The notes beneath the pieces are model-generated. The model was not told where the DNA came from, searched no databases, and was given only the letters and a program-made list of their open reading frames with translations. From a virus: 18,128 nucleotides of DNA. The first letter of the stretch is position 1; every line of letters begins with the position of its first letter. A program made the translations under genes and the position numbers. Positions 1 to 18,128 of the stretch are shown here, piece after piece. The stretch covers positions 1 to 18,128 of the IMG/VR virus record IMGVR_UViG_3300045988_000846; one strand, 5' to 3'.

Positions 1-202
1 AAGGAGGGGAGGGGTCCCAGCAGCTATCCTTTTTCCACAACTGCTCTATCCTGTGTTTTGCATTGCTGTTGCTTTGTGTGTTTTTGTATTGCCGTTGTTC
101 TCTGTGTTTTTCGTTTCCGCTCTCTTTGTGTTCGTTTCCTTGTCTTGTTTTGTCTTCGTTTTTTTGTGTGTTTTGGGTGTGTTGTTTTTTGTGGCGTGTT
201 AT
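1..202. repeat. Left inverted terminal repeat (ITR-L), 202 bp
   Basis: Positions 1-202 (AAGGAGGGGAGGGGTCCCAGC...GTGGCGTGTTAT) are the exact reverse complement of 17927-18128, compared base by base. Identity breaks at 203 (G) versus the complement of 17926 (A). The repeat starts at the first base of the window. Confidence 0.97.
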
Positions 203-205
203 GAT
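197..205 (+). promoter_or_regulatory. Extended -10 promoter-like element TGtTATGAT straddling the ITR/unique boundary
   Basis: TG-n-TATGAT at 197-205. The first 6 nt lie inside the ITR and the last 3 in unique DNA. The predicted start near 212 gives a ~29-nt leader carrying AAGGAAGGAAG (222-232) before ATG 241. There is no good -35. Confidence 0.45.
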
Positions 206-240
206 GTGAGTATCAACCGATAAGGAAGGAAGTAAATAAA

Positions 241-441
241 ATGATTAACAACAACATCATCAAGGATTACGTTGAGGATTACATCTTAAATAGTAATCAA
301 TTCATTGATGAGTTTGACGTTGATGCGATTGTTGAAAATCTGCATCATGTGGCCTTGGTTAATGATATAACTATTGAGGGATATGACGATTGCGATTCGT
401 TTCCGGCTGATGATTTTACGGAAGCGTTCAAGGAAGCGTGA
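241..441 (+). CDS. Small, very acidic early protein (66 aa), function unknown; possible DNA-mimic or host-takeover protein
   Basis: ATG 241 is preceded by a strong SD (222-232). Composition is 17 Asp/Glu, 2 Lys and 0 Arg. The gene is visibly AT-rich compared with the genome core. It is the first gene inside the left ITR. Confidence 0.8.
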   Translation: MINNNIIKDYVEDYILNSNQFIDEFDVDAIVENLHHVALVNDITIEGYDDCDSFPADDFTEAFKEA

Positions 442-446
442 AGGAT

Positions 447-515
447 ATGTTTCTTTCTGTTCTCGTTATCTGCTCGTGTGTTGTTGGTGTTGTTGTCGTC
501 TTTGGCATGATATAG
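447..515 (+). CDS. Possible 22-codon hydrophobic mini-ORF (MFLSVLVICSCVVGVVVVFGMI)
   Basis: ATG 447 to TAG 513-515. AAGGA lies only 1 nt upstream, which is poor spacing. Its hydrophobicity could simply reflect the T/G-rich strand. Confidence 0.15.
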   Translation: MFLSVLVICSCVVGVVVVFGMI

Positions 516-518
516 AAT
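490..518 (+). promoter_or_regulatory. Putative early promoter (TTGTTG - 17 nt - TAGAAT; alternatively the TGaTATAGA extended -10 at 508-516)
   Basis: TTGTTG at 490-495, a 17-nt spacer, then TAGAAT at 513-518. The TGATATA core (508-514) is the same as in the boxes at 7218 and 9636. It lies in the 173-nt non-coding gap upstream of gene 615. Confidence 0.35.
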
Positions 519-535
519 CGTGTTAGAAGGTTGAA

Positions 536-604
536 ATGTTGGATATTGTTTGTTGGACGGCGGTTGTCGTTGTGGTTTCCGTCGTTTTAGTGTCGTATCT
601 GTGA
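536..604 (+). CDS. Possible 22-codon hydrophobic mini-ORF (MLDIVCWTAVVVVVSVVLVSYL)
   Basis: ATG 536 has AGAAGG (525-530) 5 nt upstream. TGA 602-604 overlaps the GTGAGG SD of gene 615. It lies downstream of the putative promoter at 490-518. It is too short for the ORF track. Confidence 0.3.
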   Translation: MLDIVCWTAVVVVVSVVLVSYL

Positions 605-614
605 GGTAAATGAA

Positions 615-860
615 ATGGTTAAGGATGATAGGAAGATTGCCACGTTCCATTCTCCGTTCAGGGGCGGTGACGTTGGATTATGGTATTGCGCTCATCGCAA
701 TGTGTACGAACTTCGGTATGATGTCCGATTTTATTCGATGGACGGACTGACTGATGCAGTTGCATTAACGCCGTATGACGCATGTAACTACGACCAAGTG
801 GTCGACATCATCGTCGACGCTACTAACTTGGCGCTCACTCCACTTTTAGGGAGGGGTTAG
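615..860 (+). CDS. Hypothetical early protein (81 aa)
   Basis: ATG 615 is preceded by GTGAGGT. It is tightly packed with the next gene (stop 860, next ATG 863). I recognise no motif. Confidence 0.7.
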   Translation: MVKDDRKIATFHSPFRGGDVGLWYCAHRNVYELRYDVRFYSMDGLTDAVALTPYDACNYDQVVDIIVDATNLALTPLLGRG

Positions 861-862
861 CC

Positions 863-1066
863 ATGTATTTTCGTGGTTGGATTCATTCGTGGACCTGCGG
901 CAACTGTCCTGACGCTAACATATATTGGCGTTTACGTGCGTTTTGGGCAGGCGTGAAGCATAGACGTAGCGCGGATAATCCGCCGAAACGTTGCCCGAGC
1001 GGTTTTCTGTGGGAAACGTTGTGGCTGGACGGTTATGATAGTAACGAAGACACATTGGAGTTTTAA
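863..1066 (+). CDS. Hypothetical early protein (67 aa), Trp-rich with a CGNC motif
   Basis: ATG 863 is preceded by GGGAGGGG. It has 7 Trp in 67 aa, plus CxxC and one more Cys. I recognise no family. Confidence 0.65.
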   Translation: MYFRGWIHSWTCGNCPDANIYWRLRAFWAGVKHRRSADNPPKRCPSGFLWETLWLDGYDSNEDTLEF

Positions 1067-1068
1067 TT

Positions 1069-1593: not shown

Positions 1594-1616
1594 CAATAAG
1601 ATAAGGCGGAATGATT

Positions 1617-1931: not shown

Positions 1932-1958
1932 TAACCCCTATAAGGAAAGGCAACACTA

Positions 1959-2516: not shown

Positions 2517-3461
2517 GTGGCAAAACGCAAAAACCGCCGACGCGCTGACATTCTGAAACGCAACGCCGCAATCAGGTCGGCACAGGTACGCCGAGACCGG
2601 GCAGTCGGGGATTACAGTACCGGACGCCTCCCCAAGCGAATCACCGAAACGTTTTTAGGAAATCTCAGTGCCCAACAGCTTGAGCAGGTGGCACGACGTA
2701 TCGGGCAGGAATTCGGAGAACAACAGCAAGCCTTGAGGGCGCGGGATAATGAGCCGTATCAGGTTGTCCCAGATGTTCATATTACGAAACTTGATCGTGA
2801 GATGGCCGCGCGTCCGCTGATAACTGATGCGGAAATCGCCGCCGCCCCGTCGAAACGTCGGAAAACATTGCGGCAGCAGCAGCGCCGCAGAGTTGAGGCA
2901 CGGCAGAAGATTAAGCGTGCCCAACAATTCGAGGCGCTGAGTATGGCCCGCTATACCGTGGGTGAAATGCGTGAAATGGAACGCGCGGGGGAATCTCCGT
3001 TCGACGTGTTAGGCACTCACACGGTCGGCGGTTCGGCACGTGACGAACTCATGCGAAGCCGTGCGAACGTGTTCAGTACAGAGCGTGGAATAAGCCATGC
3101 TCGTACGATGATGCGAGAAGGGAGCCGTAGGAAACTTGAGCGAGAAATGCTTGAATACGCCGGACTTATTGGACGTGCGCCATTACGCGCGGGAACTAGG
3201 CGTATCCCCGAGAACGAGGGTGTTTCTGATTTCGATAAGGTCGCGCAGCAACTTGAAGCATTCGATTTTAGTGTTGCTCAAAGATTCGCCGCCTTGTCGA
3301 ACCGTCAAAAACGATGGCTGATAAACAACACGAATTTCAGCACCGTAGTACGCGAGGCAACATGGTATAATGATAAGGCACACAAATGGGAGACTAAAGC
3401 AGACGCGGGAGATGTAGAGGCACGACTTGATGAATGGATGACCAGCGCAGCAAGACACTAA
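2517..3461 (+). CDS. Putative terminal protein (protein primer), ~314 aa
   Basis: It lies immediately upstream of, and overlaps, the polymerase ORF, the conserved TP-pol arrangement of phi29-type phages. The N-terminus is strongly basic (VAKRKNRRRADILKRNAAIRSAQVRR). The rest is Arg/Glu-rich and looks helical. I chose start GTG 2517 after AGGGGGA; the ORF is open from ATG 2415, so the start is uncertain. Sequence similarity to phi29 TP is not evident by eye beyond the basic N-terminus. Confidence 0.55.
   Translation: MAKRKNRRRADILKRNAAIRSAQVRRDRAVGDYSTGRLPKRITETFLGNLSAQQLEQVARRIGQEFGEQQQALRARDNEPYQVVPDVHITKLDREMAARPLITDAEIAAAPSKRRKTLRQQQRRRVEARQKIKRAQQFEALSMARYTVGEMREMERAGESPFDVLGTHTVGGSARDELMRSRANVFSTERGISHARTMMREGSRRKLEREMLEYAGLIGRAPLRAGTRRIPENEGVSDFDKVAQQLEAFDFSVAQRFAALSNRQKRWLINNTNFSTVVREATWYNDKAHKWETKADAGDVEARLDEWMTSAARH
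3363..3371 (+). promoter_or_regulatory. Consensus extended -10 (TGgTATAAT) inside the 3' part of the TP gene
   Basis: A perfect TGnTATAAT at 3363-3371, ~105 nt upstream of polymerase ATG 3476. It could be an internal promoter for the polymerase or a chance match. Confidence 0.25.
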
Positions 3462-3475: not shown

Positions 3476-4936
3476 ATGCGAGAGCGTCGAACGGCGGTAA
3501 CAGACGGCGCAACACTATTAACGGATGACGGCATAACGCCATTGACGGTGAATGCCGTCATTCGGCTAACCATGCTTGATCATCATACGCGCGTATGGTG
3601 CGCTCACGGATGGCAGGACATCAAGCCCATAGCCGCTCAACTATTGAAACGACTGCCATTGCAATCGAATCCGGCCAAAGATGGAGTCTGGGGCACTTTC
3701 AACATTCGTGGCCATTTCTACAGTTTCCGCGTGCGCATGGGCGGCATCACCGTGGATTTTCTGGACGTGCGCAACATCACGCGCGACGATGGACTGAATG
3801 TTTCACGTGAAACGTTTGGCGGCGCGGATGACTTGGAAACCACGTGGAATATCGCGCAGGAATGCGACGCCCTAAACCTCAAGGGCAATACAATAGCGTC
3901 CATGGCAATGGGCGATTATATCGGCGGGGATTACGCAGGATTCAAACGTCACTTCCCTCCATTGGATAAAGCGGAATATCATCGGATGCGCCCCGCATAC
4001 TATGGGGCGATAGTGTACAGCAGGCCGGGTGAATATCGGGATTGCAGGAGTTGGGACGTGAACAGCCTCTATCCGGGTATCATGCGCGACTTTGCCATGC
4101 CGGTAGGATCTCCCGTTTGGTATGAAGGGGAATATTATTATGACGCTGATTATCCGCTGCATATCGATGTTATCGCGTTCGACGCGCGACTGAAAACGGG
4201 AAAAACGGCGACACTCACAAACATCCTACCCGTATGGGGGTACGAGGGCGAACGTATGGACAGCACGTTGGGCGTCGTCACCATGCCGGTGGCCGACGTG
4301 GATTGGCAGACCTTGACGGAAAACTATGATGTCCATGTGTGGGAGTATATCGGCGGTTGGAAATTCCGTAAATCGCATGGACTCTACTACGAGTATGTGG
4401 ACAAATGGTTCCACGTGAAACAAACCGCAACCGGCGAGCGTCGGCAAATGGCGAAACTATTGCTTAATTCGTTGGTTGGGAAGTTTGGAGCCTCGCTTTA
4501 TCGGCCCATGCTGCACCCAAAGCCTTCTGGCGATGGCGGCGTGGATTTTACTGTAGACAAACCTGAGTCAACCAACTCGCTCGCATGGCTACCAACCGCC
4601 GCATATGTCAACGCCTACGGTCGGCAAATATTGTCACGCGCGATGAACGCGAACGCCGGTCGTGTGCTCTATGCCGATACGGACGGCATGATACTGGACG
4701 GACTGGATGCGCCTGCGGATATCGAAACGGACGATAGGAAACTGGGCGCGTGGAAAAACGACCACACCTATGGAAAACTTCGTATTCTCGGCAATCGCAA
4801 ATACTGCGGTGTGGAGACGGACGGCGGCACGGTGATGCGGTTGAGTGGCGTGCATCGGGCATCCCCTATCCACTACGACGACTTCCTTCCGAGGTCGCGC
4901 CATGTCAATGATGACGGCTGTTTTTTTGTGCTATGA
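3476..4936 (+). CDS. Protein-primed family B DNA polymerase (phi29 gp2-like), 486 aa
   Basis: ATG 3476 follows AAAAAGGATGG; the ORF is open from 3434. Motif A is WDVNSLYPGIM, motif B is KLLLNSLVGKFG and motif C is LYADTDG. A long collinear match to phi29 pol includes SPVWYEGEYYYDADYPLHIDVIAFDARLKTG against EPIVFEGKYVWDEDYPLHIQHIRCEFELKEG. A TPR2-like insertion lies between motifs B and C. The C-terminal VNDDGCFFVL matches VDDTFTIK. Confidence 0.93.
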   Translation: MRERRTAVTDGATLLTDDGITPLTVNAVIRLTMLDHHTRVWCAHGWQDIKPIAAQLLKRLPLQSNPAKDGVWGTFNIRGHFYSFRVRMGGITVDFLDVRNITRDDGLNVSRETFGGADDLETTWNIAQECDALNLKGNTIASMAMGDYIGGDYAGFKRHFPPLDKAEYHRMRPAYYGAIVYSRPGEYRDCRSWDVNSLYPGIMRDFAMPVGSPVWYEGEYYYDADYPLHIDVIAFDARLKTGKTATLTNILPVWGYEGERMDSTLGVVTMPVADVDWQTLTENYDVHVWEYIGGWKFRKSHGLYYEYVDKWFHVKQTATGERRQMAKLLLNSLVGKFGASLYRPMLHPKPSGDGGVDFTVDKPESTNSLAWLPTAAYVNAYGRQILSRAMNANAGRVLYADTDGMILDGLDAPADIETDDRKLGAWKNDHTYGKLRILGNRKYCGVETDGGTVMRLSGVHRASPIHYDDFLPRSRHVNDDGCFFVL

Positions 4937-4937
4937 T
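4929..4937 (+). promoter_or_regulatory. Extended -10 TGcTATGAT overlapping the polymerase stop codon
   Basis: TG-c-TATGAT at 4929-4937. The pol TGA (4934-4936) lies inside the hexamer. A T7 run lies just upstream (4921-4927). A weak -35, aTGACg, sits at 4911-4916 with a 15-nt spacer. The predicted start near 4944-4946 falls right at the base of the long stem described for the ncRNA. Confidence 0.4.
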
Positions 4938-4944: not shown

Positions 4945-5108
4945 AGCGGGGTGTGCGTCCCAAGCTGATTCAATGGCCCGACCGGTGGGCAATCGGTAAG
5001 GCGATTCGGTCGGATGTAGACGTGCGTAGCCAACGCCCATTGACGGCGAGGGAACCCGCACAGCCTAGCAATCCGGCACGGTGGCGTGATTGCCGCCGTG
5101 CCTTCTAC
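4945..5108 (+). ncRNA. Candidate structured ncRNA, proposed packaging RNA (pRNA)
   Basis: The 180-nt gap has no ORF. By-eye folding gives a long interrupted stem pairing 4946-4976 with 5037-5069: TGTGCG/CGCACA, TCCC/GGGA, GCTG/CGGC and TCAATGG/CCATTGA. The stem closes a three-way junction. One arm is a bulged hairpin at 4978-5013 (7 bp + 5 bp, 6-nt bulge GUGGGC, loop GUAAGG). The other is a short hairpin at 5024-5036 (loop AGCCA). A 3' hairpin follows at 5075-5102. The length of ~160 nt is comparable to the 174-nt phi29 pRNA. The genome encodes gp10- and gp16-like partners. Confidence 0.45.
5075..5102 (+). terminator. GC-rich hairpin (11-bp stem), terminator-like
   Basis: GGCACGGTGGC (5075-5085) pairs with GCCGCCGTGCC (5092-5102), giving 10 Watson-Crick and 1 G-U pair with loop GTGATT. 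It is followed by TTCTACCTT, a weak U tract. It sits just before the scaffold SD. Confidence 0.5.
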
Positions 5109-5122: not shown

Positions 5123-5467
5123 ATGGACGACATCGAAAACGACGACAGGCCGGACACCACGCCCGACACTGAACCGGACGTGGCCGCTGACGACAATACG
5201 CCGACCCCGGAACCTGAAACGCAGGACGATAACGAACCCGAGGACGCGGGCGACGACAAGAACGCCGACATGGCCGATCGGCTGAGCGCGTTGGAGGCGA
5301 CCGTGGCGGAATTGTCCAAAACCGTTGAGGCGATGCGCGACGCCGCCGCCGACCACGTGCTGAACGATGGCCCCGACGACAATGCAACGCCGGAATCGGA
5401 CGATGAAATGACCGACGACGACTACAACGGCACCTACAGCACGTTCGACGACCTATACGAAGACTGA
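5123..5467 (+). CDS. Putative scaffolding protein (phi29 gp7 position), 114 aa, extremely acidic
   Basis: ATG 5123 follows AAGAGG; the ORF is open from GTG 5117. It has Asp/Glu/Pro/Thr-rich flanks around a helical core (ADRLSALEATVAELSKTVEAMRDAAAD). It lies directly upstream of the major capsid gene. Confidence 0.7.
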   Translation: MDDIENDDRPDTTPDTEPDVAADDNTPTPEPETQDDNEPEDAGDDKNADMADRLSALEATVAELSKTVEAMRDAAADHVLNDGPDDNATPESDDEMTDDDYNGTYSTFDDLYED

Positions 5468-5489
5468 CGATTAGAAAGGAATGACTATC

Positions 5490-7220
5490 ATGGCAACCAC
5501 TCCCGTGGTGACGCCGAAGCAGCAGCTTCGACCGCTCACCGAGTTCAACAACGCTCAGATTCTCAACATGATTCGCAACGAGGCGTCGCCGGAGTATCAG
5601 CGGCGAATGCCCTCGGCCACTCAGATGAACATGGATAGGCAGATGGCTACGCTTATGTCGTCCACCCAGCTTAAGAACGAGTTTTATTCGGCGTTGGTGA
5701 ACCGCATCGGCGGCACCTACGTGAACACGTGGCGTTGGAACAATCCTCTTGGCGTTTTCCAGCGCGCATCGCAGGCGTATGGCGATACGTGGCAGGAAAT
5801 CGCCGTTGGAATGCCTCTTGCGCAGGTCTACGACCCTAATGCGGAATATCTCGGCGCGGATAATTTCCGCAAGTGGAAAATCGACGTGGATTCACTCTAT
5901 CACCGTCTTGACTTCGCTCACTGGTATCCGGCGACCACGGATGACAAGACGTTGCAGCGTGCCTTCACTTCCGAAAACGGTTTGGCCTCGCTCACTTCCC
6001 AGATTCTCACATCCTGCTACAATGCGGCTGAGGTTGACTTGTTCGAGGCCATGTGCCACCAGTTCGTCGAATACGCGAAGCTCGGCGGATATTGGCGCGT
6101 CCATATGGATAACGATCTGAACAACATGGGCAGTTCGGAAACGGACGCCCGCGATATGCTGCGTCAGATTCGCGCATGGGCCGACACGCTTAAATTCGTC
6201 AGCACCAAGTACAACGCCCGTCACATGCCGACCTTCGCCCGTCCGGATGAACTTGTGCTGTTCTGTTCCCCGGAAGTCAAGTCGGCGCTTGACGTGCAGG
6301 GCCTCGCCACGGTATTCCAGCGTACGGACGCGGAGCCGACAATCGACCGGATTATCGTCATTCCGCAGGACAGGTTCGGCATGGATGGCGTGCAGGCCAT
6401 TTTGACTACCGACAAGTTCCTGATTGACATTCCCGTCATCAACGAGATGACCCAGCAGACAAATCCGGTGAACATCAATTCAGTCAACCATTACCTGCAT
6501 GTCCAGCACATCATCTCAGTGTCCGGCTTCGCCCCGGCTGTGATGTTTTGGACGGGCGCCGGTTCCACTGCGAACGTGGTGGCTCCCACCGGCACGCAGG
6601 CTCAGGCGCCGACGTTCCAGCTCAAGCTCGCCATGTATGGCGGCGGCACGACCACGCCGGAGAATGTGGCGCGTGGTGGCGCGGTGCAGGTCACTGCCGA
6701 TACGACCATCGGAAATGACGGTACCGCCACGTTCCGCTCGGATGCGGTTGAGTATCGTATCGGAGACACCGCCAAGCCGAAGAGCGATTACACGTATATC
6801 TCGCCCACCGGCGTGCTCGTGGTCGGCCTTGACGAACCGAACACCACTATCCCGGTGACGGCGACCGCCTTGTACACGAATCCGGCGACGCCGGAAGTGC
6901 CGGGAACCGTGTCCGCGGCTCTGGACGTGCCAGTGGTCGGTGACGGTGTCATCGGATTCAACCCGTCCATCGTCGCGTCCATTGCCGTGACCGTACCGAA
7001 CGTGACCGTAGGACATACGGCGCAGGCCACCGCCGTGGCGACCATGATTGACGGTCGTACCGCCGACGTGACGGCACAGGCGGCATGGACGTCCGGCACT
7101 CCGGCGAACGCCACCGTGTCCGAGTCGGGCGTGGTGACCGGTGTCAAGGCGGGCGGATCTGATATCACCGCCACACTGTTCGGCGTGTCCGGTAAGAAGA
7201 GCGTGACCGTGACGGCGTGA
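5490..7220 (+). CDS. Major capsid protein with C-terminal Ig-like (Big_2-type) domain(s), 576 aa
   Basis: ATG 5490 lies 9 nt after GAAAGGA; ATG 5481 is an alternative. It occupies the position after the scaffold gene, as in phi29 gene 8. The C-terminus TAQATAVATMIDGRTADVTAQAAWTSGTPANATVSESGVVTGVKAGGSDITATLFGVSGKKSVTVTA matches the bacterial Ig-like group 2 pattern. phi29 gp8 also carries a BIG2 domain. Confidence 0.85.
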   Translation: MATTPVVTPKQQLRPLTEFNNAQILNMIRNEASPEYQRRMPSATQMNMDRQMATLMSSTQLKNEFYSALVNRIGGTYVNTWRWNNPLGVFQRASQAYGDTWQEIAVGMPLAQVYDPNAEYLGADNFRKWKIDVDSLYHRLDFAHWYPATTDDKTLQRAFTSENGLASLTSQILTSCYNAAEVDLFEAMCHQFVEYAKLGGYWRVHMDNDLNNMGSSETDARDMLRQIRAWADTLKFVSTKYNARHMPTFARPDELVLFCSPEVKSALDVQGLATVFQRTDAEPTIDRIIVIPQDRFGMDGVQAILTTDKFLIDIPVINEMTQQTNPVNINSVNHYLHVQHIISVSGFAPAVMFWTGAGSTANVVAPTGTQAQAPTFQLKLAMYGGGTTTPENVARGGAVQVTADTTIGNDGTATFRSDAVEYRIGDTAKPKSDYTYISPTGVLVVGLDEPNTTIPVTATALYTNPATPEVPGTVSAALDVPVVGDGVIGFNPSIVASIAVTVPNVTVGHTAQATAVATMIDGRTADVTAQAAWTSGTPANATVSESGVVTGVKAGGSDITATLFGVSGKKSVTVTA

Positions 7221-9650: not shown

Positions 9651-10601
9651 ATGAGCAGGTCTAAAAAGAATCGAGTCGGCGGCGCGTTGCACCCGCGCGG
9701 CAATTACGCGAAAACACGCGCCGTCACGCTTGATGACATGTATCTTCATTTGCTGATGGAACTCGCGTTGAACCGTTTCAGTTGGCGCGGATTGCCGCCC
9801 ACTGTGGACGAACGTTGGCTGGAAATATGTCTGTGCGAATACGGTTGCGCGCTGTTTTTCGAAGACAAACGTATCGGCAGGTTCCTTGTGACTCAGGCGG
9901 GCTATCAGGGCAGACTGAACGTGTACAATAATCCGACATGCTTCGAGCCGGTAGGCGTCAACTACCATTACAGGCAACTCAAGGCCGGTTCGGAATGCAT
10001 CCCCATTTGGGACAATCGAATGCGCGTCGGATTCAAACCGACATTATGGCAGTACGCGCGACGCCTTGCCGATATCGACAAAGCGTACGATGTGAACTTG
10101 GAGAGTCTTAAACTGCCGACCATCATAACCGCCGACCCCCGCACCAAGCTCACCGTGCAGAACATGCTTCAGCAACGGCAGGACGGTCAGGACTATATCA
10201 TAGGATACGATTCGCTTGACCCCGGCAGTATGTTCCAGCCGTGGCCGAACACCACGCCCTATCTGCTGGATAAGTTTATTCAGCAGAAAGCACAGGTGAC
10301 TAACGAAGTGTTGGGGTATCTCGGCATTCAATCGTCCGGCACGGAAAAAAAGGAACGGCTGATCTCCGACGAAGTTGCGCAGGCCAATGAGAAAACAGAC
10401 GTGTTCCGCTTGAGTTTCCTCAAGGCGCGGCAGGCTGCGGCGACCGAGATTAACCGATTATGGCCGCAACTGAACGTGTGGGTGGAATACGCGGACGCGC
10501 AAAGCTCCGGCGTGCCGAACGCGCTTGATTCAAGCGCAAGCGGTACGACGGATATTGACATGCCAGCATCATACGACGCGGATATCGGAGGTGTATTGTA
10601 A
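9651..10601 (+). CDS. Portal / upper collar connector protein (phi29 gp10-like), 316 aa
   Basis: LALNRFSWRGLPPTV matches phi29 gp10 LAYQLFEWENLPPTI. YLGIQSSGTEKKERLISDEV matches [20 protein letters not shown]. The N-terminus is basic (MSRSKKNRVGGALHPRGNYAKTR), like the pRNA-binding N-terminus of gp10. Confidence 0.93.
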   Translation: MSRSKKNRVGGALHPRGNYAKTRAVTLDDMYLHLLMELALNRFSWRGLPPTVDERWLEICLCEYGCALFFEDKRIGRFLVTQAGYQGRLNVYNNPTCFEPVGVNYHYRQLKAGSECIPIWDNRMRVGFKPTLWQYARRLADIDKAYDVNLESLKLPTIITADPRTKLTVQNMLQQRQDGQDYIIGYDSLDPGSMFQPWPNTTPYLLDKFIQQKAQVTNEVLGYLGIQSSGTEKKERLISDEVAQANEKTDVFRLSFLKARQAAATEINRLWPQLNVWVEYADAQSSGVPNALDSSASGTTDIDMPASYDADIGGVL

Positions 10602-11395
10602 TGGCACAGGATTTTAGCGCCTACGCGATGACGACGCCGGGGGAGTACACCGAAACCCTCGGTAATCTTATCGCATTCGGCTATGATACCGACGACAAAC
10701 TGCATCTTAGCGCCGATTATTACCCGATTTACGACGAATCTCATCGCGCGGAATTAAATGAGAAGATTATCCGCCATTACGCGCTTAGGGAGATAGGACA
10801 GGAAACCGCGCAGCAGTTCGTTTTCTATCTGGGTATGACAATGGCGGAGATCATGCCCTATTTCAACGAACGCTATCGGACACTGGACATGGAATATGAT
10901 CCGCTGGACTCCATGGACATGACAACGGACAGTGAGAGCGACAGCGAATCCCAGTCGTCTGGTAGGGCATCCAGTACGCAGGACTCTAACAGCAGCAGTA
11001 CCAGCAAGTCGGATAATTCCAGCACCACCACGTCAAAGAGTTTCGACAGTGACGTGCCGCAGACCGGCGTCGTGGGCGACTTCGCACGCTACGCGAGCCA
11101 CGCGAACGAGTCGCAGGCGAACAGCTCCGGCACGGCATCCAGTTCTCAGGATTCAACCAGCCACACCACCGCACAAAGCGCAACCGACTACCAGCATGAT
11201 TCAAACAATTCCAAGGGCAAGAGCCATGTGACCGGGCGCAGCCAAAGCGCCATGAGCCTGATACAGGAATACCGGAACGCCATCATCAACGTGGACATGG
11301 AAATCGTACGGAGCCTTGAGCCGTGTTTCATGCAGGTGTGGGGTTCGTATGATACAATATTCAGCAACTGCCATAACTATGGAGAATGGGAGTGA
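10601..11395 (+). CDS. Lower collar protein (phi29 gp11 position), 264 aa
   Basis: The ATG overlaps the portal stop (TAATG) and follows GGAGGTG. Position and size are as in phi29 gene 11. The N-terminal pattern YPIYDESHRAELNEKIIRHYALREIGQETAQQFVFYLGMTMAEIMPYFNERY is typical of lower collar proteins as I remember them. The central part is Ser/Thr-rich. Confidence 0.7.
   Translation: MAQDFSAYAMTTPGEYTETLGNLIAFGYDTDDKLHLSADYYPIYDESHRAELNEKIIRHYALREIGQETAQQFVFYLGMTMAEIMPYFNERYRTLDMEYDPLDSMDMTTDSESDSESQSSGRASSTQDSNSSSTSKSDNSSTTTSKSFDSDVPQTGVVGDFARYASHANESQANSSGTASSSQDSTSHTTAQSATDYQHDSNNSKGKSHVTGRSQSAMSLIQEYRNAIINVDMEIVRSLEPCFMQVWGSYDTIFSNCHNYGEWE
11350..11358 (+). promoter_or_regulatory. Extended -10-like TGaTACAAT inside the 3' end of the collar gene
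   Basis: TG-a-TACAAT at 11350-11358, ~40 nt before ATG 11398. It may drive the fibre module or be a chance match. Confidence 0.25.
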
Positions 11396-11397
11396 CA

Positions 11398-12033
11398 ATG
11401 AGTGCCGTTAATGCACTGGTACCACGGGAACGATTGTTTGACGGAATACCTACATCCGTTCCGTTCACGTATCGGGACGGATTGACCACGTTGCAGTTGA
11501 TTGAATGTCTACGCCATAATCTCGATACCCTCCAATGTGATTTGAGCAGGTTGGAGGGGGTCACTACTGACCTAGCGGTATCCGTGGACAAAACCCTTGC
11601 GGACACCGTGGCGCAGGTCAACAAGTCGATGGACGATTTGCGGGCGGAAATGCTGGCCCTGATTCATGAGATGGAACAACAGGGCGCGGCCACCTCCCCC
11701 GTGTATGGCACCACGCAACCGCTCGGGGATGTGCTTGGCGGCATGTACGATAATGCGCGCAATCACGGATTGTTCTGGGGTGATTATGACGACATGCTGT
11801 TGACCGCGCAGGAATACGACGGGCTTGGACTCGGCGCACGTGAGTACGATCTGAGGGCCACCGCCGTGGATAATTGCGTCCCCGGTGATTTTCCGGGCCG
11901 CCCCCAATTCCCCTACGGGAAATCCATGCCGGAGAACCCCGTGGCGGACATGGCGTTTATCACGCAGTCCGAGGCGGACGCACGCTATGTCGAACGTAAT
12001 CCAACCGCAGACAATTTCGATAGGAAGGAATAA
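11398..12033 (+). CDS. Putative tail/collar-associated structural protein (211 aa), function unknown
   Basis: ATG 11398 follows GGGAG; the ORF is open from 11386. It lies between the collar and fibre genes. It has a predicted coiled segment (LSRLEGVTTDLAVSVDKTLADTVAQVNKSMDDLRAEMLALIHEME). I recognise no family. Confidence 0.6.
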   Translation: MSAVNALVPRERLFDGIPTSVPFTYRDGLTTLQLIECLRHNLDTLQCDLSRLEGVTTDLAVSVDKTLADTVAQVNKSMDDLRAEMLALIHEMEQQGAATSPVYGTTQPLGDVLGGMYDNARNHGLFWGDYDDMLLTAQEYDGLGLGAREYDLRATAVDNCVPGDFPGRPQFPYGKSMPENPVADMAFITQSEADARYVERNPTADNFDRKE

Positions 12034-12038
12034 TTGCC

Positions 12039-12458
12039 ATGACTGCGACCAACAAGACAAAAAATTACAACCTCAGCCAGTTTGTCGGCTCCGACCGTCC
12101 TACGTGGCTCGGAGATTACAACAGCGATATGTCGAAAATCGACGCGCAGCTGAAGCAGAACGCGGACGACATCGCATCAGCAGCAGCCGGTGGCCTCACT
12201 TCGGTAAGCCATACCGCCGACCTTACCGGAAACGGCACATCCGGCTCTCCGCTGGGCGTGGCGAACACCGTCGCAAAGAAGACCGATATCCCGGACGCGA
12301 GCAGATTCGCCACCACCTCCGCCCTCACCTCGGGGCTTGCGGGCAAGGTCGATAAAACCGCCTCGCAGCCAAGCACGCTCGGATTGACGGCGGCTGAACT
12401 TGATTCGATGTACAAGGACGCGAACGGCATCGTCCGCGTTGGTAACGCCGGCGCCTAG
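12039..12458 (+). CDS. Short tail fibre/appendage protein (139 aa) with the conserved N-terminal anchor motif
   Basis: ATG follows AGGAAGGA. The N-terminus NYNLSQFVGSDRPTWLGDYNSDMSKIDAQL is paralogous to the N-terminus of the next gene. It also contains a fibre-like repeat, LTGNGTSGSPLGV. Confidence 0.65.
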   Translation: MTATNKTKNYNLSQFVGSDRPTWLGDYNSDMSKIDAQLKQNADDIASAAAGGLTSVSHTADLTGNGTSGSPLGVANTVAKKTDIPDASRFATTSALTSGLAGKVDKTASQPSTLGLTAAELDSMYKDANGIVRVGNAGA

Positions 12459-12475
12459 GGAAAAGGAAAATAACA

Positions 12476-13921
12476 ATGTCTACCACACAGCATACCGGAC
12501 ACTACAATCTGCCGACATTTGGCGATAATCCGAATGACCGCCCGTCGTGGCGCGGCGATTTCACCGACGCGATGACGAAAATCGATAATCAGATGTACGC
12601 CAACGCCACCAACATCACCACGGCGACGGCGGCGGCGAACAACGCGACCACGGCGGCGGGCGAGGCTAAGACGGCGGCTAGCAACGCCACAAGTCTCGCG
12701 CAGACCAACAAGAACGATATTGCCGACTTGAATGGCTATTTCGGTAAGCTCGGCGTCACGTCGGAATCAACCGCGCAGCAGCTTATGGACACCATCAACG
12801 GCAAGGCGGAGGATACCGAACTGACCTCGCTTAAGAGCACGGTATCTTCATTGTCCAGCACGGTTAATACCAAGGCGAACACCTCCGACGTGTACACCAA
12901 GGGTCAGGCCGACACGACGTTTACTAAGCAGGGCGGATATTCCGGCACCGCGCAGCAGCTGAGCCAGCGTATTCAGGCGCTGGAAGCGACGCCGCAAGAT
13001 CAGCCGCCAATCTGCCTCTGCATCGGAGACAGTTACGCCAATTCGTCCGAGACCGTCGACCCGGACGGGACGGACGCGACCAAGTGGCCTACGCAGCTCC
13101 GCAACATTATCGGCGGCGAGTATCAGGTGAAAAACTATTCCGTGACCGGCGCGGGGTTCAACGTTTCAGGTAAGACGTTCACCGACCAGATTAACAATGC
13201 TTACAGCGCTTCGGCCATCGACAACGATAATGTGGCAATAGTCATCATTGGAGGCGGTCGAAACGATATCGGCACCACTCCGCAGATGGAGTCATATGCG
13301 GACGCGACGTTCTCCAATGCGCGCGTCAAGTTCCCTAAAGCCCGCATTATCTCCGTGCCTATGCTCTGGCATAATGCAGGTATGGACATGTACGGTCGGC
13401 AGAAAGTGGCGGGCGTTGCGGAAGCGGCTGTCAAAAACGGCGTTGAGAACGTTGACTGGGCTTGGACGTGGAATATTGGCAACGATTCTAACTTCCCCAG
13501 TGGCAACATTCATCCGAACGCGAACGGTGCGAAGGTCATCGCATCCTATATGGCCTCCGCAATCCGAGGCACTTATACCGGACGCTACGAAGCGGCCACC
13601 ATCTCTTCATCCAGCGGCCATGTGCATGGCAATATCGTGGCGTCTGGTGGCATGGTTTTCGCCACACTTTGGGGCGAAGATCCAACCACAAATGCCGAAC
13701 TAAAGGCAGGGCTTACGTTCCCGAGCTGGGCCAGAGTGGTAGAGGGTTCCTCGCCCGACCGGCTCAGGACGTGGGGTGCGGGCCTCACTAACTCCGGCAA
13801 CGCTATAAGCGGCTGGCTGTTAGTCAACATGAGTCCGGGAACGTCCGGTAGCCCCAGGATCTCCTACTTCGGAGATACTGCCGGAGGTAACAATGGCTGT
13901 TTCGTCTGCTACCCGTGGTGA
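12476..13921 (+). CDS. Tail fibre / receptor-binding protein with central SGNH (GDSL-type) esterase domain, 481 aa
   Basis: The N-terminal anchor motif is HYNLPTFGDNPNDRPSWRGDFTDAMTKIDNQM. An Ala/Thr/Asn-rich coiled stalk follows. SGNH block I is CIGDSYANS, block II is SVTGAG, block III is IIGGGRNDI and block V is GNIHPNANG. The C-terminal ~115 aa look beta-rich. Confidence 0.75.
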   Translation: MSTTQHTGHYNLPTFGDNPNDRPSWRGDFTDAMTKIDNQMYANATNITTATAAANNATTAAGEAKTAASNATSLAQTNKNDIADLNGYFGKLGVTSESTAQQLMDTINGKAEDTELTSLKSTVSSLSSTVNTKANTSDVYTKGQADTTFTKQGGYSGTAQQLSQRIQALEATPQDQPPICLCIGDSYANSSETVDPDGTDATKWPTQLRNIIGGEYQVKNYSVTGAGFNVSGKTFTDQINNAYSASAIDNDNVAIVIIGGGRNDIGTTPQMESYADATFSNARVKFPKARIISVPMLWHNAGMDMYGRQKVAGVAEAAVKNGVENVDWAWTWNIGNDSNFPSGNIHPNANGAKVIASYMASAIRGTYTGRYEAATISSSSGHVHGNIVASGGMVFATLWGEDPTTNAELKAGLTFPSWARVVEGSSPDRLRTWGAGLTNSGNAISGWLLVNMSPGTSGSPRISYFGDTAGGNNGCFVCYPW

Positions 13922-13986: not shown

Positions 13987-15252
13987 ATGGACAATACGGC
14001 ACTATACGCGATGTATGTTATCGGCACGGTGGAAAGCAATTGCGATTGGGGCGCATGCAATTATGTGGACGCCATCACTATGGGCATTATGCAATGGTAT
14101 GGCAGTCGCGCCCGCGATCTATTGGAACGAGGGCGCACCGCCGACCCGGACGGGTGGAACACGTTCGCCGCGGCGGCTCCCACATTGGCGCAGCAGGTGC
14201 AGGCTAATGACATCAACTGGACGGCACGCTACCTATCCACCGCGGAGGGTAATGCGTGGAAAACGTGGGCACAGCGGGACGAAAACCATGCTTTCCAAGA
14301 GGCGCAATGGGAGGCGGATTGGAACGGATACCAATTCACTATGACCAATTTCGGTTTTCCCGAAGGGAATGTGAAAGAGCGTATCATGTGGGCGTGCGCT
14401 TATCATCAATCCCCCGCGCAGGCGCAGCGTGTGCTTGCATCATGCTCGGCAACCGCCACGCTGGAATTGATTTACACTACGATTTTGGCGGACGGCGTGC
14501 TGGGCCAGTACCGTAATCGGTATACGACCGCGTATAATCTACTGAAATCGTGGGACGGCACGAACGCGCCTCCTGATTTTGGTCAGACTTCCGAACCGTC
14601 CGACACGCCGGGAGGCGACCAGTCCGGCATCGACGGGAAACCCGCGAGTACCGCGTGGATCCAATTGCAGGGTGATAACCTTATCTACCACAGCGGGGAC
14701 AGTACCGCCATTTTTGTAAAAGGCGTCGCACAGACATGGGTATACAAGACTTCCGAATCAACCAAGCCGGGCGGCGGTCAGACTGGCGGCGGTTCCAGTT
14801 CCGGCAACAGCAGCGAGGATGCGGCGCGAGTCGTGGAATGGCTGCGGTCACGCATCGGCAGATACGCATACTCGCAGGGCGCGGGGCGATTAGATCCCGA
14901 TTCGAGTGGGTACGGCGATTGCTCCAGTGTATGCTGGCGAGCGTATCAGGACGTGCTGGGCATCGACGTGGGCACATGGACAGGCCAGATGGCAAGCAAG
15001 GGCACCCGCGTCTGTGGCAGCTCCGACACATCGGTGTCGGATGCTATCGCCAAGGCGCAAGCAGCCGACCTGCTATTGCTGGACTGGGGCGCGTATACTC
15101 AGGCATGGGACCATGTGGAAATGTTCACCGGAGATTCCAAGGACGAAACATTATCGCACGGGGGGCCGGGCAATGGGCCGAATCTGTTCGCCGCGTCGGG
15201 TGAAATGAGCATGGCGAGCAGGTGGGAGATACGCCGGTACATCACCGATTAG
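13987..15252 (+). CDS. Tail-associated peptidoglycan hydrolase (phi29 gp13 position): N-terminal lysozyme-like domain + C-terminal NlpC/P60-type cysteine peptidase, 421 aa
   Basis: The N-terminus YVIGTVESNCDWGACNYVDAITMGIMQWYG has a Glu-containing, lysozyme-like pattern. A Gly/Ser linker follows (PGGGQTGGGSSSGNSS). The C-terminus has GYGDCSSVCWRAY (nucleophile Cys) and WDHVEMFTG (His), as in NlpC/P60/CHAP-like enzymes. The ORF is open from GTG 13969, so the start is uncertain. Confidence 0.8.
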   Translation: MDNTALYAMYVIGTVESNCDWGACNYVDAITMGIMQWYGSRARDLLERGRTADPDGWNTFAAAAPTLAQQVQANDINWTARYLSTAEGNAWKTWAQRDENHAFQEAQWEADWNGYQFTMTNFGFPEGNVKERIMWACAYHQSPAQAQRVLASCSATATLELIYTTILADGVLGQYRNRYTTAYNLLKSWDGTNAPPDFGQTSEPSDTPGGDQSGIDGKPASTAWIQLQGDNLIYHSGDSTAIFVKGVAQTWVYKTSESTKPGGGQTGGGSSSGNSSEDAARVVEWLRSRIGRYAYSQGAGRLDPDSSGYGDCSSVCWRAYQDVLGIDVGTWTGQMASKGTRVCGSSDTSVSDAIAKAQAADLLLLDWGAYTQAWDHVEMFTGDSKDETLSHGGPGNGPNLFAASGEMSMASRWEIRRYITD

Positions 15253-15297: not shown

Positions 15298-15306
15298 TGG
15301 TATCAT
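15298..15306 (+). promoter_or_regulatory. Extended -10-like TGgTATCAT upstream of the ATPase gene
   Basis: TG-g-TATCAT at 15298-15306. The second in-frame ATG (15314) lies 7 nt after the hexamer. Neither ATG 15305 nor ATG 15314 has a convincing SD. Confidence 0.35.
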
Positions 15307-16411
15307 GGATAGTATGGAGAAGCTGTTAAGCGAGGGCGATTACTACGGTTATGGGCGCGTGCTGTCCTATCACGCGCCTTGGATGTTCGTCATCGGCGCG
15401 CGCGGCCTCGGCAAGACCTATGGTGCTAAAAAACTGGTCATAGGCGACTGGATTAAAAAACGCTGGCAATTCATCTACCTACGCCGAACGGCAGAGGAAC
15501 AGAAAAACAAAGGGACTTGGTTTGCGGACATTGCAGAGCAATACCCGGAATTAGAGTTTAGGATATCCGGCAATCAAGCCGAATGTCACTGGCTGGATGA
15601 CAGGGACGCCACCGCAGGCAAGCACGGCAAGAAACGCCCAACATGGCACATCATGGGATATTTTATCGCCCTATCACAGGCCGGACAGGTGAAATCGGTT
15701 GCCTACCCCAGAGTACGCACCATTGTCTTCGACGAAATATTCCCCGATAATATGCGATACCTTGGCGGAGAGGTCACGGCGCTTGAGGAATTTTACAACA
15801 CGGTAGACCGCTGGAATGACAGGGTTCGCGTTATCATGTGCAGCAACGCCGTAACGTTGGCTAATCCGTATTTCAGCGCGTTTAATATCAATCTAAAACC
15901 GCAGCTGGATAATCACGTGCAATATCAGCGATATTGCGACGGGTTTATTATGGTGGAATTAGCTGATTACGGCGGATTCAGCGCCAAGGTTGCCACATCC
16001 AAATTCGGACAGTTTCTACGCAGATACGACGAAAATTATGCGAATTATGCAATCAATAACGGTTTCAGGGATAACGCCAATGCTCTCATTAGTGATTTCA
16101 AGGACGCCGGATATGCGTTCACATTAAGAACCACCGAATACGGTATTTTCAACGTATATCAGCAATTAAGCGACACCGACGAAGTGCTATATATAATCAC
16201 AAAAAAACAACCGAAAATCACCCGTAATTTCACGTTCGATTATCGACTTGTAGACAATAATTGCATAATGCTCAAGCGCTCCGACGACATGACGCAAAAA
16301 ATACTGAACGCCTATCGCGTCGGTAGATTACGGTTTGAAACCCCGCAGATTAAAGCGGAGTTTAGCATGATTCTTGGCGGCTTATTACAACAATCAGGCA
16401 TAAGAAAGTGA
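15305..16411 (+). CDS. DNA packaging ATPase (phi29 gp16-like), 368 aa (365 aa if started at ATG 15314)
   Basis: VLSYHAPWMFVIGARGLGKTYGAKK matches phi29 gp16 MLSYDRILNFVIGARGIGKSYAMKV (Walker A). VRTIVFDEIF is Walker B. RVRVIMCSNAVTLANPYFSAFNI matches RVRCICLSNAVSVVNPYFLFFNL. The C-terminal RVGRLRFE matches NGYLRFD. Confidence 0.93.
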   Translation: MDSMEKLLSEGDYYGYGRVLSYHAPWMFVIGARGLGKTYGAKKLVIGDWIKKRWQFIYLRRTAEEQKNKGTWFADIAEQYPELEFRISGNQAECHWLDDRDATAGKHGKKRPTWHIMGYFIALSQAGQVKSVAYPRVRTIVFDEIFPDNMRYLGGEVTALEEFYNTVDRWNDRVRVIMCSNAVTLANPYFSAFNINLKPQLDNHVQYQRYCDGFIMVELADYGGFSAKVATSKFGQFLRRYDENYANYAINNGFRDNANALISDFKDAGYAFTLRTTEYGIFNVYQQLSDTDEVLYIITKKQPKITRNFTFDYRLVDNNCIMLKRSDDMTQKILNAYRVGRLRFETPQIKAEFSMILGGLLQQSGIRK

Positions 16412-16419
16412 GGAATATA

Positions 16420-16782
16420 ATGATGCAAGCGGACATATGGTGCACCATTGCAGCCATGTTTTTCATTAGCATCGACTACGTTACTGGCGTAGTAAAAGCA
16501 ATCATGCGGGACAATCTGAGTTCGCGAAAGATGCGTGAGGGACTAGGGCACAAGTTCGCCTATCTTATGCTTGTGCTGGTGGCATGGTTCATCGACGAAG
16601 TGAACCGGCATATCGACTTAGGACTGCCAATGTCCGTATTTGTCTGCACGGTCGGCGGAGTCTGTCTAATCGAACTCACGTCAATACTCGAAAACGTCAC
16701 CGAAATCAATCCCGAATTAAAAAACGCGCCATTTATGCGGATTTTCGCTCAATCCACAAGTGGTAAGCACGGGGCGGAATAA
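16420..16782 (+). CDS. Holin (phage_holin_4 / TcdE-like pattern), 120 aa
   Basis: ATG 16420 lies 6 nt after GTGAGGA. It has three hydrophobic segments: IWCTIAAMFFISIDYVTGVV, FAYLMLVLVAWFI and MSVFVCTVGGVCLIELTSIL. The motif DYVTGVVKA....LSSRKMREGLGHK is typical of that holin family. It lies immediately upstream of the endolysin, with a TAATG overlap. Confidence 0.8.
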   Translation: MMQADIWCTIAAMFFISIDYVTGVVKAIMRDNLSSRKMREGLGHKFAYLMLVLVAWFIDEVNRHIDLGLPMSVFVCTVGGVCLIELTSILENVTEINPELKNAPFMRIFAQSTSGKHGAE

Positions 16783-17570
16783 TGGACGGCGTGAAGTGGA
16801 TAGGCTCGCCAAACCACTACAGTGGACGAGCCGGACATAAGGTGACACACATCACCCTACATATTATGGCCGGTTTTCTGGCAGGTACCGATAGTGTGTT
16901 CTCACGTTCATCCAGTCAGGCGAGCGCACACTACGGCGTCGGAGCCGGTGGCGAAATACATCAATATGTTGACGAAACTAATGGCTCGTGGTCTGATGCC
17001 AATTACGAGTCAAACATGTCAACTATCAGCATCGAGCATGAAGGGGGTATAGCGCAAGCGCCATGCACGCAAGCATGTATCGACGCCAGTGCTCGACTTT
17101 GCGCCGATATAGCGCAACGTTACGGACTAGGCATGTTATGGCATGACGGGACACGTGGTAACGTATGGCTACATCGAGAAATCAGCGGCACCGACCACGC
17201 CACATGTCCAGACCTAGCACCAAACGGGCTACCATACCAGCAAGTGATCGACAAAGCCAACAAGATAATAGGAGGTACAACAATGGCTAGCGCAGGGGAT
17301 GAAGTTTGGAACTGGGCATACAAGCCAGACGGGAAAAACGCGACACCGGGCGGCAATATGTACAATCTACTTAACTACGAACTGCCGATACGCATTCGGG
17401 ACAGCATCATGCAATATAACTTCAAAAACACCGCGCCGGGGGGCAACGTTTACAACACTCTTTGCTTTGAAATACCCGGAATGCTGAAACAACTCGCCAA
17501 AACAATCGAAGAACAGCAAAAGCAAATCGATGCGCTGACCGAAAAAATCGACAAACTGCAAAAAATCTGA
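16782..17570 (+). CDS. Endolysin: N-acetylmuramoyl-L-alanine amidase (Amidase_2/PGRP type) with an unusual repeat plus coiled-coil C-terminus, 262 aa
   Basis: HITLHIMAG, SAHYGV, TISIEHEG and LHREISGTDHATCPD match the T7-lysozyme-type zinc amidase pattern (His, Tyr, His, Cys). The C-terminus has two ~18-aa repeats (ATPGGNMYNLLNYELPIR and TAPGGNVYNTLCFEIPGM), then LKQLAKTIEEQQKQIDALTEKIDKLQKI. Confidence 0.9.
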   Translation: MDGVKWIGSPNHYSGRAGHKVTHITLHIMAGFLAGTDSVFSRSSSQASAHYGVGAGGEIHQYVDETNGSWSDANYESNMSTISIEHEGGIAQAPCTQACIDASARLCADIAQRYGLGMLWHDGTRGNVWLHREISGTDHATCPDLAPNGLPYQQVIDKANKIIGGTTMASAGDEVWNWAYKPDGKNATPGGNMYNLLNYELPIRIRDSIMQYNFKNTAPGGNVYNTLCFEIPGMLKQLAKTIEEQQKQIDALTEKIDKLQKI

Positions 17571-17588
17571 CAAATAGCAACAGAGAAT

Positions 17589-17626
17589 AAGTAAAGCCCC
17601 TAGGATTACGCCTAGGGGGCTTACTT
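17589..17626. terminator. Bidirectional terminator-like hairpin between convergent genes
   Basis: The core stem pairs CCCCTAGG (17597-17604) with CCTAGGGG (17611-17618), with loop ATTACG. After a 2x2 internal loop the stem extends by 6 more bp, pairing AAGTAA (17589-17594) with TTACTT (17621-17626). It lies between the endolysin stop (17570) and the stop of the minus-strand gene (17635). Confidence 0.7.
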
Positions 17627-17634
17627 GTTATATA

Positions 17635-17892
17635 TCAGTCGCCGTTATCGATCGAGATAACATACTTGCGGCACGGACGCCCCTTTTTCGAGAGGCCCTG
17701 AGCAACCTCAATATAATCATAATCAAAGCTCAACATTAATTCAATAACCGAAGAGAGAGCAGAGTCAAAAGTGGTAACAGAGTCGTCAATCAAACCATTA
17801 TCACGAACAGTACCAGTATACACATCTTCAATACCGACTTTATATACATTATCCGGCTCAATCTCGATAACGTAAGCATTAAACTTATTCAT
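17635..17892 (-). CDS. Small acidic protein (85 aa) transcribed inward from the right ITR, function unknown
   Basis: The minus-strand ATG at 17892 is preceded by GGGAAAGGAAAAAA. The longer ORF-track start at 17919 would translate the SD region. It has 15 Asp/Glu and 8 Lys/Arg. It is AT-rich relative to the core. The N-terminal pattern FNAYVIEIEPDNVYKV faintly recalls HicB/UPF0150-type folds, which is very tentative. Confidence 0.75.
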   Translation of the reverse strand: MNKFNAYVIEIEPDNVYKVGIEDVYTGTVRDNGLIDDSVTTFDSALSSVIELMLSFDYDYIEVAQGLSKKGRPCRKYVISIDNGD

Positions 17893-17923
17893 TTTTTTCC
17901 TTTCCCTAGAAGCGGACAACTAC

Positions 17924-17932
17924 AGTATAACA
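17924..17932 (-). promoter_or_regulatory. Extended -10 TGtTATACT straddling the right ITR/unique boundary (mirror of 197-205)
   Basis: The minus strand reads ...GTGGCGTGTTATACTGTAG. TGtTAT comes from the ITR and ACT from unique DNA. The predicted start near 17917 gives a ~25-nt leader with an SD before ATG 17892. Confidence 0.45.
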
Positions 17933-18128
17933 CGCCACAAAAAACAACACACCCAAAACACACAAAAAAACGAAGACAAAACAAGACAAGGAAACGAACA
18001 CAAAGAGAGCGGAAACGAAAAACACAGAGAACAACGGCAATACAAAAACACACAAAGCAACAGCAATGCAAAACACAGGATAGAGCAGTTGTGGAAAAAG
18101 GATAGCTGCTGGGACCCCTCCCCTCCTT
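17927..18128. repeat. Right inverted terminal repeat (ITR-R), 202 bp
   Basis: It is the exact reverse complement of 1-202 and ends at the last base of the window. Confidence 0.97.

Follow-up and report, generated by a model that had tools for sequence, protein, structure and literature searches.

A 2024 review of the phi29-like phages reports more than 2000 entries, a clade from Actinobacteria, and gut phages from metagenomes for which hosts in Bifidobacterium have been suggested (PMC11476376). The window analysed here is the whole IMG/VR virus record IMGVR_UViG_3300045988_000846, a stretch of 18,128 bp. Its nearest described relatives by protein are the Bifidobacterium phages BadAztec1/2/4, BadAargau2, BD811P1–3, and BP1, with identities of 26–69%. 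An original prediction, made from the letters alone, had taken the window for a whole linear replicon of a phi29-type phage. Our analysis makes it highly likely that the window is an essentially complete linear double-stranded DNA (dsDNA) genome of an uncultured podophage of the phi29-like group, which does not integrate, belongs to a lineage very common in metagenomes, and has Bifidobacterium as its host. Coordinates are those of the window, and features lie on the plus strand unless stated otherwise.

The window displays several features of the phi29-like group. It is a linear dsDNA genome within the range of ~12–30 kb, is bounded by inverted terminal repeats (ITRs), and encodes a polymerase with TPR1 and TPR2, a major capsid protein (MCP), homologs of gp10, gp11, and gp9, and a gp16 ATPase. 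Nine hallmark genes are supported by Pfam or PHROG profiles. These are the single-stranded DNA-binding protein (SSB), polymerase, MCP, knob, portal, lower collar, ATPase, holin, and amidase genes of the proposed gene set, whereas its scaffold, terminal protein (TP), and p6-like members are assigned by position or composition only. The predicted gene kit for protein-primed replication, with g07 as its candidate TP, is supported by profile matches and by the alignment and model of the polymerase.

A maximum likelihood tree was calculated from the concatenated polymerase, portal, MCP, and ATPase sequences (1503 columns). The window forms the third deep branch of a clade (100/100) whose other two branches are the cultured Bifidobacterium phage lineages. 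The sister of this clade (100/100) is composed of Av-1, RHph_N3_8, and phages of Arthrobacter, Curtobacterium, and Microbacterium. The window thus falls in an actinophage clade and outside Salasmaviridae, as phi29 and GA-1 form a 100/100 clade of their own. The order of genes is identical to that of BD811P2, gene for gene. Identities to the nearest phages are 33–36% for the polymerase, 37–42% for MCP, 44–48% for the portal, 43–48% for the ATPase, up to 67% for the holin, and 69% for the amidase. With the whole window as query, megablast returned no match among 50,697 phage records. By convention of the International Committee on Taxonomy of Viruses, a genus corresponds to about 70% nucleotide similarity over the genome. 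Judged by the lack of a megablast match and by protein identities of 26–69%, the window is outside the Badaztecvirus and BD811P-like genera. It is a new, uncultured, genus-level member of an already known clade, and not a rare high-GC oddity.

The G+C content (GC) of the whole genome is 53.8%. It amounts to 52–60% in the core (2–15 kb), which the original prediction had placed in the mid-to-high 50s, and to 44–49% at both ends. Av-1 had been named as the only comparable higher-GC case. This does not hold, because many actinobacterial phi29-like phages are known; those in the phage collection infect Bifidobacterium, Arthrobacter, Curtobacterium, Microbacterium, Glutamicibacter, and Eggerthella and have 49–59% GC. 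The GC of the window is therefore ordinary for the group. By module, GC ranges from 37 to 50% across the lysis cassette, ATPase, and early genes, compared with 53–62% in the replication and structural core; the lysis module lies at 46–50%, below the core. The contrast suggests module exchange or different selection.

The lineage is abundant. At least 112 IMG/VR contigs, mostly of 17.5–19.3 kb, encode a polymerase 87–96% identical to that of the window (g08). Among 80 contigs that were fetched, none is a relative at the species level, the best showing 88–91% identity. The TP candidate g07 is represented by 633 clusters at 90% identity across public metagenomes, which shows how common the lineage is.

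Pfam and PHROG searches of the window proteins detected no integrase, recombinase, or repressor family, and no integrated copy of the window is present in 151 Bifidobacterium genomes. Both results agree with the earlier remark that lysogeny genes are lacking. Alternatively, instead of being a strictly virulent phage, the window could persist in Bifidobacterium cells as a linear, protein-primed element, either a phage-plasmid or one in a carrier state. In line with such an element, several small early genes are without a family match, one Bifidobacterium assembly (G110) holds contigs of two other phi29-like phages, and the 2024 review lists phi29-like 'phage plasmids' (PMC11476376). However, the virion and lysis gene sets of the window are complete, no partition, repressor, or integrase family was found with Pfam or PHROG, and the 151 Bifidobacterium genomes contain spacers and lysin homologs only, without a copy of the phage. 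G110 itself may simply have been binned from a metagenome or be contaminated. We consider a persisting element unlikely and retain a non-integrating phage. The phage contigs in G110 (C10, C142, and C261; L117, L137, and L138) encode polymerases 37–39% identical to g08, and could reflect binning, contamination, or a carrier state.

Bifidobacterium is the most likely host, because three genomes of this genus carry CRISPR (clustered regularly interspaced short palindromic repeats) spacers against the window and because the endolysin is 76% identical to a B. angulatum gene. Comparison of the whole window with the 151 Bifidobacterium genomes yielded short matches of 89–97% within verified CRISPR arrays of the three genomes. 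Seven spacers match with 1–4 mismatches, and four of them reside in one array. Spacers of B. adolescentis matching BD811P2 and podoviruses have been described (PMC13011404). The endolysin scan included one genome per species from 185,579 species, and close relatives were confined to Bifidobacterium. The amidase g20 shares 76% full-length identity with a gene in a metagenome-assembled genome of B. angulatum and 52% identity with a B. phasiani gene, and all other genes are at 44% or lower. The spacers and the lysin thus narrow the predicted actinobacterial host to one genus.

The host would be another actinobacterium of the same habitat, such as Actinomyces, Gardnerella, or Collinsella, only with a very low probability. 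Two points weigh in its favor and against Bifidobacterium: the spacer search covered the genus Bifidobacterium only, and lysis genes are exchanged among phages, with the lysis module here being lower in GC (46–50%) than the core. They are outweighed by the seven spacer matches in arrays of three Bifidobacterium genomes, by top endolysin relatives that belong to Bifidobacterium only in a scan of all species, and by the fact that every nearest cultured relative infects Bifidobacterium.

The ends of the window are formed by a left ITR (1–202), which carries the presumed replication origin, and a right ITR (17927–18128, minus strand), which are exact reverse complements. The inverted match between the ends extends to 236 nt at 93% according to a repeat finder. 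The ITR is T/G-rich, with 14 A in 202 nt and a GC of 42.6%. A perfect 202-nt inverted repeat located exactly at both ends of an 18-kb sequence cannot be of chance origin. The terminus also recurs in relatives. More than 20 of 80 independent related contigs start within a few bases of it, and nine open exactly with AAAAGGAGGGG or AAAAAGGAGGGG (A4-5GGAGGGG). L008 and L065, contigs of separate datasets, each have a TruSeq adapter immediately next to AAAAGG (AAAAGGAGG), as expected of a physical DNA end. Since independent assemblies share the terminus and adapters abut it, the ends are real and the molecule is linear and essentially complete, as had been predicted. The record belongs to the IMG/VR class 'inverted terminal repeats' and has a CheckV completeness of 100%. 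The ITRs are 223–495 nt long in four relatives examined at both ends.

One feature counts against a fully intact end: the window opens with AA and not with AAAA. Related genomes start with AAAAGG or AAAAAGG and exceed the window by 2–3 A at the terminus. About two A/T are therefore probably missing from each end of the window, whose true terminus would be AAAAGGAGG.... The least probable alternative is an incomplete contig, whose terminal repeats arose during assembly or belong to a genome that is larger or circular; although the source is a metagenomic assembly, some related contigs (L051, L074) contain adapter remnants at internal positions, and the window has two terminal A fewer than its relatives, dozens of independent assemblies from several datasets share the end sequence with ITRs at both ends, the lengths of related contigs cluster at 17.5–19.3 kb, and the gene set is complete, CheckV gives 100%, and synteny with cultured phages of 17.7–19.5 kb runs from end to end. 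Among close relatives, including G152, G154, G155, and G156, the length of the ITR ranges from 202 to 495 nt. The repeat extends into the first gene in some of them, so that each end carries a copy of a terminal early gene.

The genome as a whole leaves the knowledge of this kind of phage unchanged, and its polymerase, TP candidate, and RNA features are the more interesting leads. The polymerase g08 (3476–4936) is a phi29-type protein-primed family-B enzyme of 486 residues (DNA_pol_B_2, PF03175, 1.8e-32). Its start at ATG 3476 is fixed by a conserved Shine–Dalgarno (SD) sequence. Residues 169–458 align with residues 206–501 of phi29 polymerase in the PDB, spanning motif A, TPR1, motif B, TPR2, and motif C. 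An AlphaFold (AF2) model with a pLDDT of 72 gives full-length matches to structures of phi29 polymerase (Foldseek E 1e-32, TMq 0.62–0.69), compared with an E of 1e-9 at best for other family-B polymerases.

The N-terminal domain of g08 is ~100 residues shorter than in other phi29-like polymerases, and the same is observed in all Bifidobacterium relatives. In phi29 polymerase, proofreading depends on the carboxylates of the Exo I (DxE), Exo II (Nx2-3F/YD), and Exo III (Yx3D) motifs. The exonuclease domain of g08 (3476–3950 in the window) contains neither the Glu of Exo I nor the Asp of Exo II, and the Exo III region, preceded by a ~30-residue deletion in the alignment, is absent altogether. Across four lineages, D10 in a 'DG' is the sole invariant Asp within the first ~150 residues. 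The motif loss is common to the cultured Bifidobacterium phages and three further IMG/VR lineages. All other reference polymerases keep the Exo motifs, with the exception of the divergent and poorly aligned CpV1. As the carboxylates of all three motifs are missing, it is very probable that g08 is unable to proofread. The large micro-diversity of the phage swarm could be connected with a replicative protein-primed polymerase that lacks these residues.

The TP candidate g07 (2520–3461, 313 residues) is located directly upstream of the polymerase gene. It starts at GTG 2520 and not at ATG 2415, and both the SD and the start are kept in four lineages. The position, the start, and a basic N terminus (MAKRKNRRR in the window) are conserved in all lineages of the clade. 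An AF2 model of g07 is all-α, with a pLDDT of 78. Searched against BFVD, the model has as its top match outside its own family the terminal protein of PineapplePizza, a weak hit with an E of 0.07.

Several results speak against g07 as a TP. The g07 family is not significantly related to known TPs in hhalign (probability of 4% or less), although this test does link known TPs to one another, the actinophage TPs used as a control matching phi29 TP with a probability of 88%. In addition, Foldseek found no fold match for the model in the PDB. The TP label of the original prediction is hence positional, and g07 is a candidate that would be covalently attached to the DNA ends. Single queries from the TP family (P0131 and P0136) found no related loci. 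The GTG start leaves a non-coding gap of 123 nt between SSB and TP genes (2397–2519), at the place of phi29 gene 4. No gene for a late-transcription activator was recognised anywhere in the genome.

The 186-nt gap between the polymerase and scaffold genes is the most conserved non-coding stretch of the genome. A presumed promoter lies at its left edge and is followed by a structured RNA and a terminator-like hairpin. The presumed promoter is an extended −10 box (TGcTATGAT, 4929–4937) that overlaps the polymerase stop codon. A perfect TGnTATAAT is found in 70 of 76 relatives and in a sister lineage. The conserved RNA of ~125 nt (4946–5069) is made up of a long closing helix, which begins at 4946, about 8 nt past the −10 box, and a three-way junction. 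It is followed by the GC-rich hairpin (5075–5102), which shows five compensatory pairs among relatives.

The RNA is near-invariant among 68 distinct relatives, and its fold is supported by covariation with the sister lineage. A covariance model of these relatives matches the same site in the sister lineage with an E of ~1e-10, where the polymerase is only 56% identical. In the joint alignment, 16 of 38 pairs vary on both sides, and 96% of the cells are paired compared with 32–42% when the partners are slid; the alignment was fitted to the covariance model, so these counts lean towards the model. The cultured Bifidobacterium phages have a gap of 178–230 nt at the same place, which folds into a similar closing helix and terminator but is not detected by the covariance model. 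A separate promoter-like TGGCATGATATAAT lies after the folded gap in BD811P2 and BP1.

Packaging RNA (prohead RNA, pRNA) is the best reading of the RNA at 4946–5069, and one that we modestly favor. It is suggested by the size and topology of the RNA, the phi29-type packaging motor, and the basic N terminus of the portal. The main rival is a cis-acting leader of the late operon. Two negative results reduce the weight of the pRNA assignment: Rfam has no pRNA match for the RNA, and the covariance model, run with filters off on four cultured Bifidobacterium phages, gave noise (E 0.5 or higher). Against 16 reference phage loci with default filters, the model likewise returned noise only (E 0.5 or higher). 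The position of the RNA differs from that of pRNA in phi29 or Av-1.

To our knowledge, pRNA has been demonstrated by experiment only for the Bacillus members of the group. If the pRNA assignment is right, the window RNA might be the first example from beyond the Bacillus phages, to which the 2024 review still confines pRNA (PMC11476376). With a polymerase lacking proofreading, a TP unlike known ones, and an unrecognised class of pRNA with its own promoter, the Bifidobacterium phi29-like clade may depart from phi29 in three respects at once. We put this combination forward tentatively, as somewhat less probable than its failure in at least one part. If true, pRNA-dependent packaging extends beyond Bacillus phages.

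The other genes of the left-end early and replication module lie to the left of g07. The gene g06 (1959–2396) encodes an SSB of the phi29 p5 type (PF17427, E 1.3e-15). At the p6 position, g05 (1611–1931) encodes a small protein with an acidic tail that is 31–34% identical to homologs in BadAztec and BadAargau2. A p6-like label for g05 was rejected as anything but positional, the hhalign comparison with p6 of phi29 and GA-1 not being significant. Three further early genes, g02 (615–860), g03 (863–1066), and g04 (1069–1593), together covering 615–1593, are 35–58% identical to their BD811P2 and BP1 counterparts and have no family match in Pfam or PHROG. The first gene, g01 (241–441), has a strong SD and encodes a very acidic protein of 66 residues (17 D/E and 2 K/R), for which Pfam and PHROG searches were without match. 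At 37% GC, the gene is AT-rich. One of the small acidic early proteins known from phi29-like phages is p56, an inhibitor of uracil-DNA glycosylase. That g01 is a DNA mimic or an anti-defence factor is only a guess.

All genes are oriented rightward except one, a small gene at the right end that points inward. This gene, g21 (17635–17892, minus strand), is an open reading frame with an SD, encodes an early protein of 85 residues, reads inward from the right ITR, and has no family match in Pfam or PHROG. A bidirectional terminator-like hairpin (17597–17618, not assigned to a strand) with a perfect 8-bp GC-rich stem separates the convergent amidase and g21 genes. phi29 has a bidirectional terminator at the matching place. 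A tRNA scan and an Rfam scan (E up to 1) of the window gave no matches.

The virion genes begin with g09 (5123–5467), which encodes an acidic scaffold-like protein at the gp7 position; the assignment follows from position, composition, and a conserved start with the SD AAGAGGTG. The MCP g10 (5481–7220) is of the phi29 type (PF25622, Phi29_MCP, E 2.3e-86), carries a C-terminal Ig-like domain (Big-like match), and is 37–42% identical to Bifidobacterium phage MCPs. The tail knob g11 (7332–9638) is gp9-like (PF20934 and PF16838; phrog_2248, 6.5e-90). The portal or upper collar protein g12 (9651–10601) corresponds to gp10 (PF05352, 2.2e-41) and possesses the basic N terminus mentioned above. Its gene lacks an SD, and a conserved TGATATAAT stops 6 nt 5′ of the ATG in 78 relatives. 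The g12 mRNA may be leaderless or near-leaderless. The lower collar protein g13 (10601–11395) corresponds to gp11 or adaptor Ad4 (phrog_3225, 1.4e-30). Conserved SDs in up to 80 relatives moved four gene starts of the original prediction: g07 from 2415 to GTG 2520, g08 from 3434 to ATG 3476, g09 from 5117 to ATG 5123, and g11 from 7299 to ATG 7332.

Three tail appendage or fibre genes, g14 (11386–12033), g15 (12039–12458), and g16 (12476–13921), occupy 11386–13921 and are partially similar to genes at the same position in Bifidobacterium phages. g16 contains an SGNH/GDSL hydrolase domain (PF13472, 2.5e-10). g15 and g16 have an N-terminal motif in common (12039–12140 and 12476–12580; YNL..F......P.W.GD......KID.Q), which probably anchors both in the same way as alternative appendage proteins. 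g17 (13987–15252), at the gp13 position, encodes a tail-associated lysin with a weak C-terminal NlpC/P60 domain (PF00877, E 0.0015, under the Pfam cutoff). It is 48–54% identical to Bifidobacterium phage homologs and 30% identical to the Av-1 protein, and has no match in the PDB or PHROG. The packaging ATPase g18 (15305–16411) is of the gp16 type (PF05894, Podovirus_Gp16, 3.9e-43). The holin g19 (16408–16782; PF05105, holin_4_1) and the endolysin g20 (16782–17570), an N-acetylmuramoyl-L-alanine amidase (PF01510, Amidase_2), complete the rightward genes.

These features are compatible with the following cycle. The candidate TP g07, bound to g08, would prime replication at both T/G-rich ITR ends on a 3′-TTTT template. 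Initiation of the phi29 type uses sliding-back, a step that such a template end would permit, and the p5-type SSB would assist replication. Early genes would be transcribed inward from both ends. The late genes would yield a phi29-type prohead of scaffold, capsid, and portal, which the gp16 ATPase would fill, probably with the small structured RNA as pRNA. The virion would be completed by the lower collar, knob, SGNH-hydrolase appendages, and tail lysin, and the cell would be lysed by holin and amidase.

With this genome, the known phi29-like phages of Bifidobacterium gain a genus-level lineage that is uncultured and very prevalent. Its host assignment and true ends are useful for annotation of gut viromes and for isolating lytic phages of bifidobacteria.

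Compared with named systems, phi29 (Bacillus, Salasmaviridae) has homologous SSB, polymerase, capsid, knob, portal, lower collar, and ATPase, and shares a linear genome, ITRs, and inward early transcription from the right end. However, its ITR measures 6 bp and that of the window 202 bp, its early operon is inverted, and its ATPase gene follows the lysis genes. phi29 also has gene 4, a head fibre, a left-end pRNA, a proofreading polymerase, and a GC of 40%. The collinearity with phi29 in the original prediction therefore holds in part, as the early module and the order of ATPase and lysis genes follow Av-1 and Cp-1. Cp-1 (Streptococcus) resembles the window in its long ITR (236 bp) and in the TP and polymerase genes running rightward from the left end, but is distant in the tree, AT-rich, and infects a Firmicute.

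Av-1 (Actinomyces, Dybvigvirus), with a GC of 49.5%, shares an actinobacterial host, SSB, TP, and polymerase genes reading rightward from the left end, and an ATPase gene that precedes those of holin and lysin. It differs in belonging to the sister clade and in having a 566-residue polymerase with intact Exo motifs. Its annotated pRNA lies near the right end, unlike the RNA of the window, and its TP is detectably related to phi29 TP, unlike g07.

BadAztec1/2/4 and BadAargau2 (Badaztecvirus), from B. asteroides of the honeybee gut, fall into the same 100/100 clade as the window. Their MCP, portal, and ATPase are 42%, 44–47%, and 43% identical, respectively, and homologs of g05, g14, and g16 are present in both. 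They represent another genus-level lineage and habitat, have a GC of 49–50%, and show no similarity at the nucleotide level.

BD811P1–3 (B. dentium) and BP1 (B. pseudocatenulatum) share with the window the order and orientation of about 20 genes, a similar size (17.7–19.5 kb) and GC (50–55%), a short polymerase without exonuclease motifs, and a non-coding gap between polymerase and scaffold. The holin and amidase are 66–67% and 69% identical. However, these phages form a separate deep branch, their core genes are only 26–54% identical in amino acid sequence without a megablast match, and the small RNA of the window has no detectable homolog in them. The receptor-binding module also differs, being of the pectate-lyase type in BD811P1–3 and BP1 and containing an SGNH hydrolase in the window.

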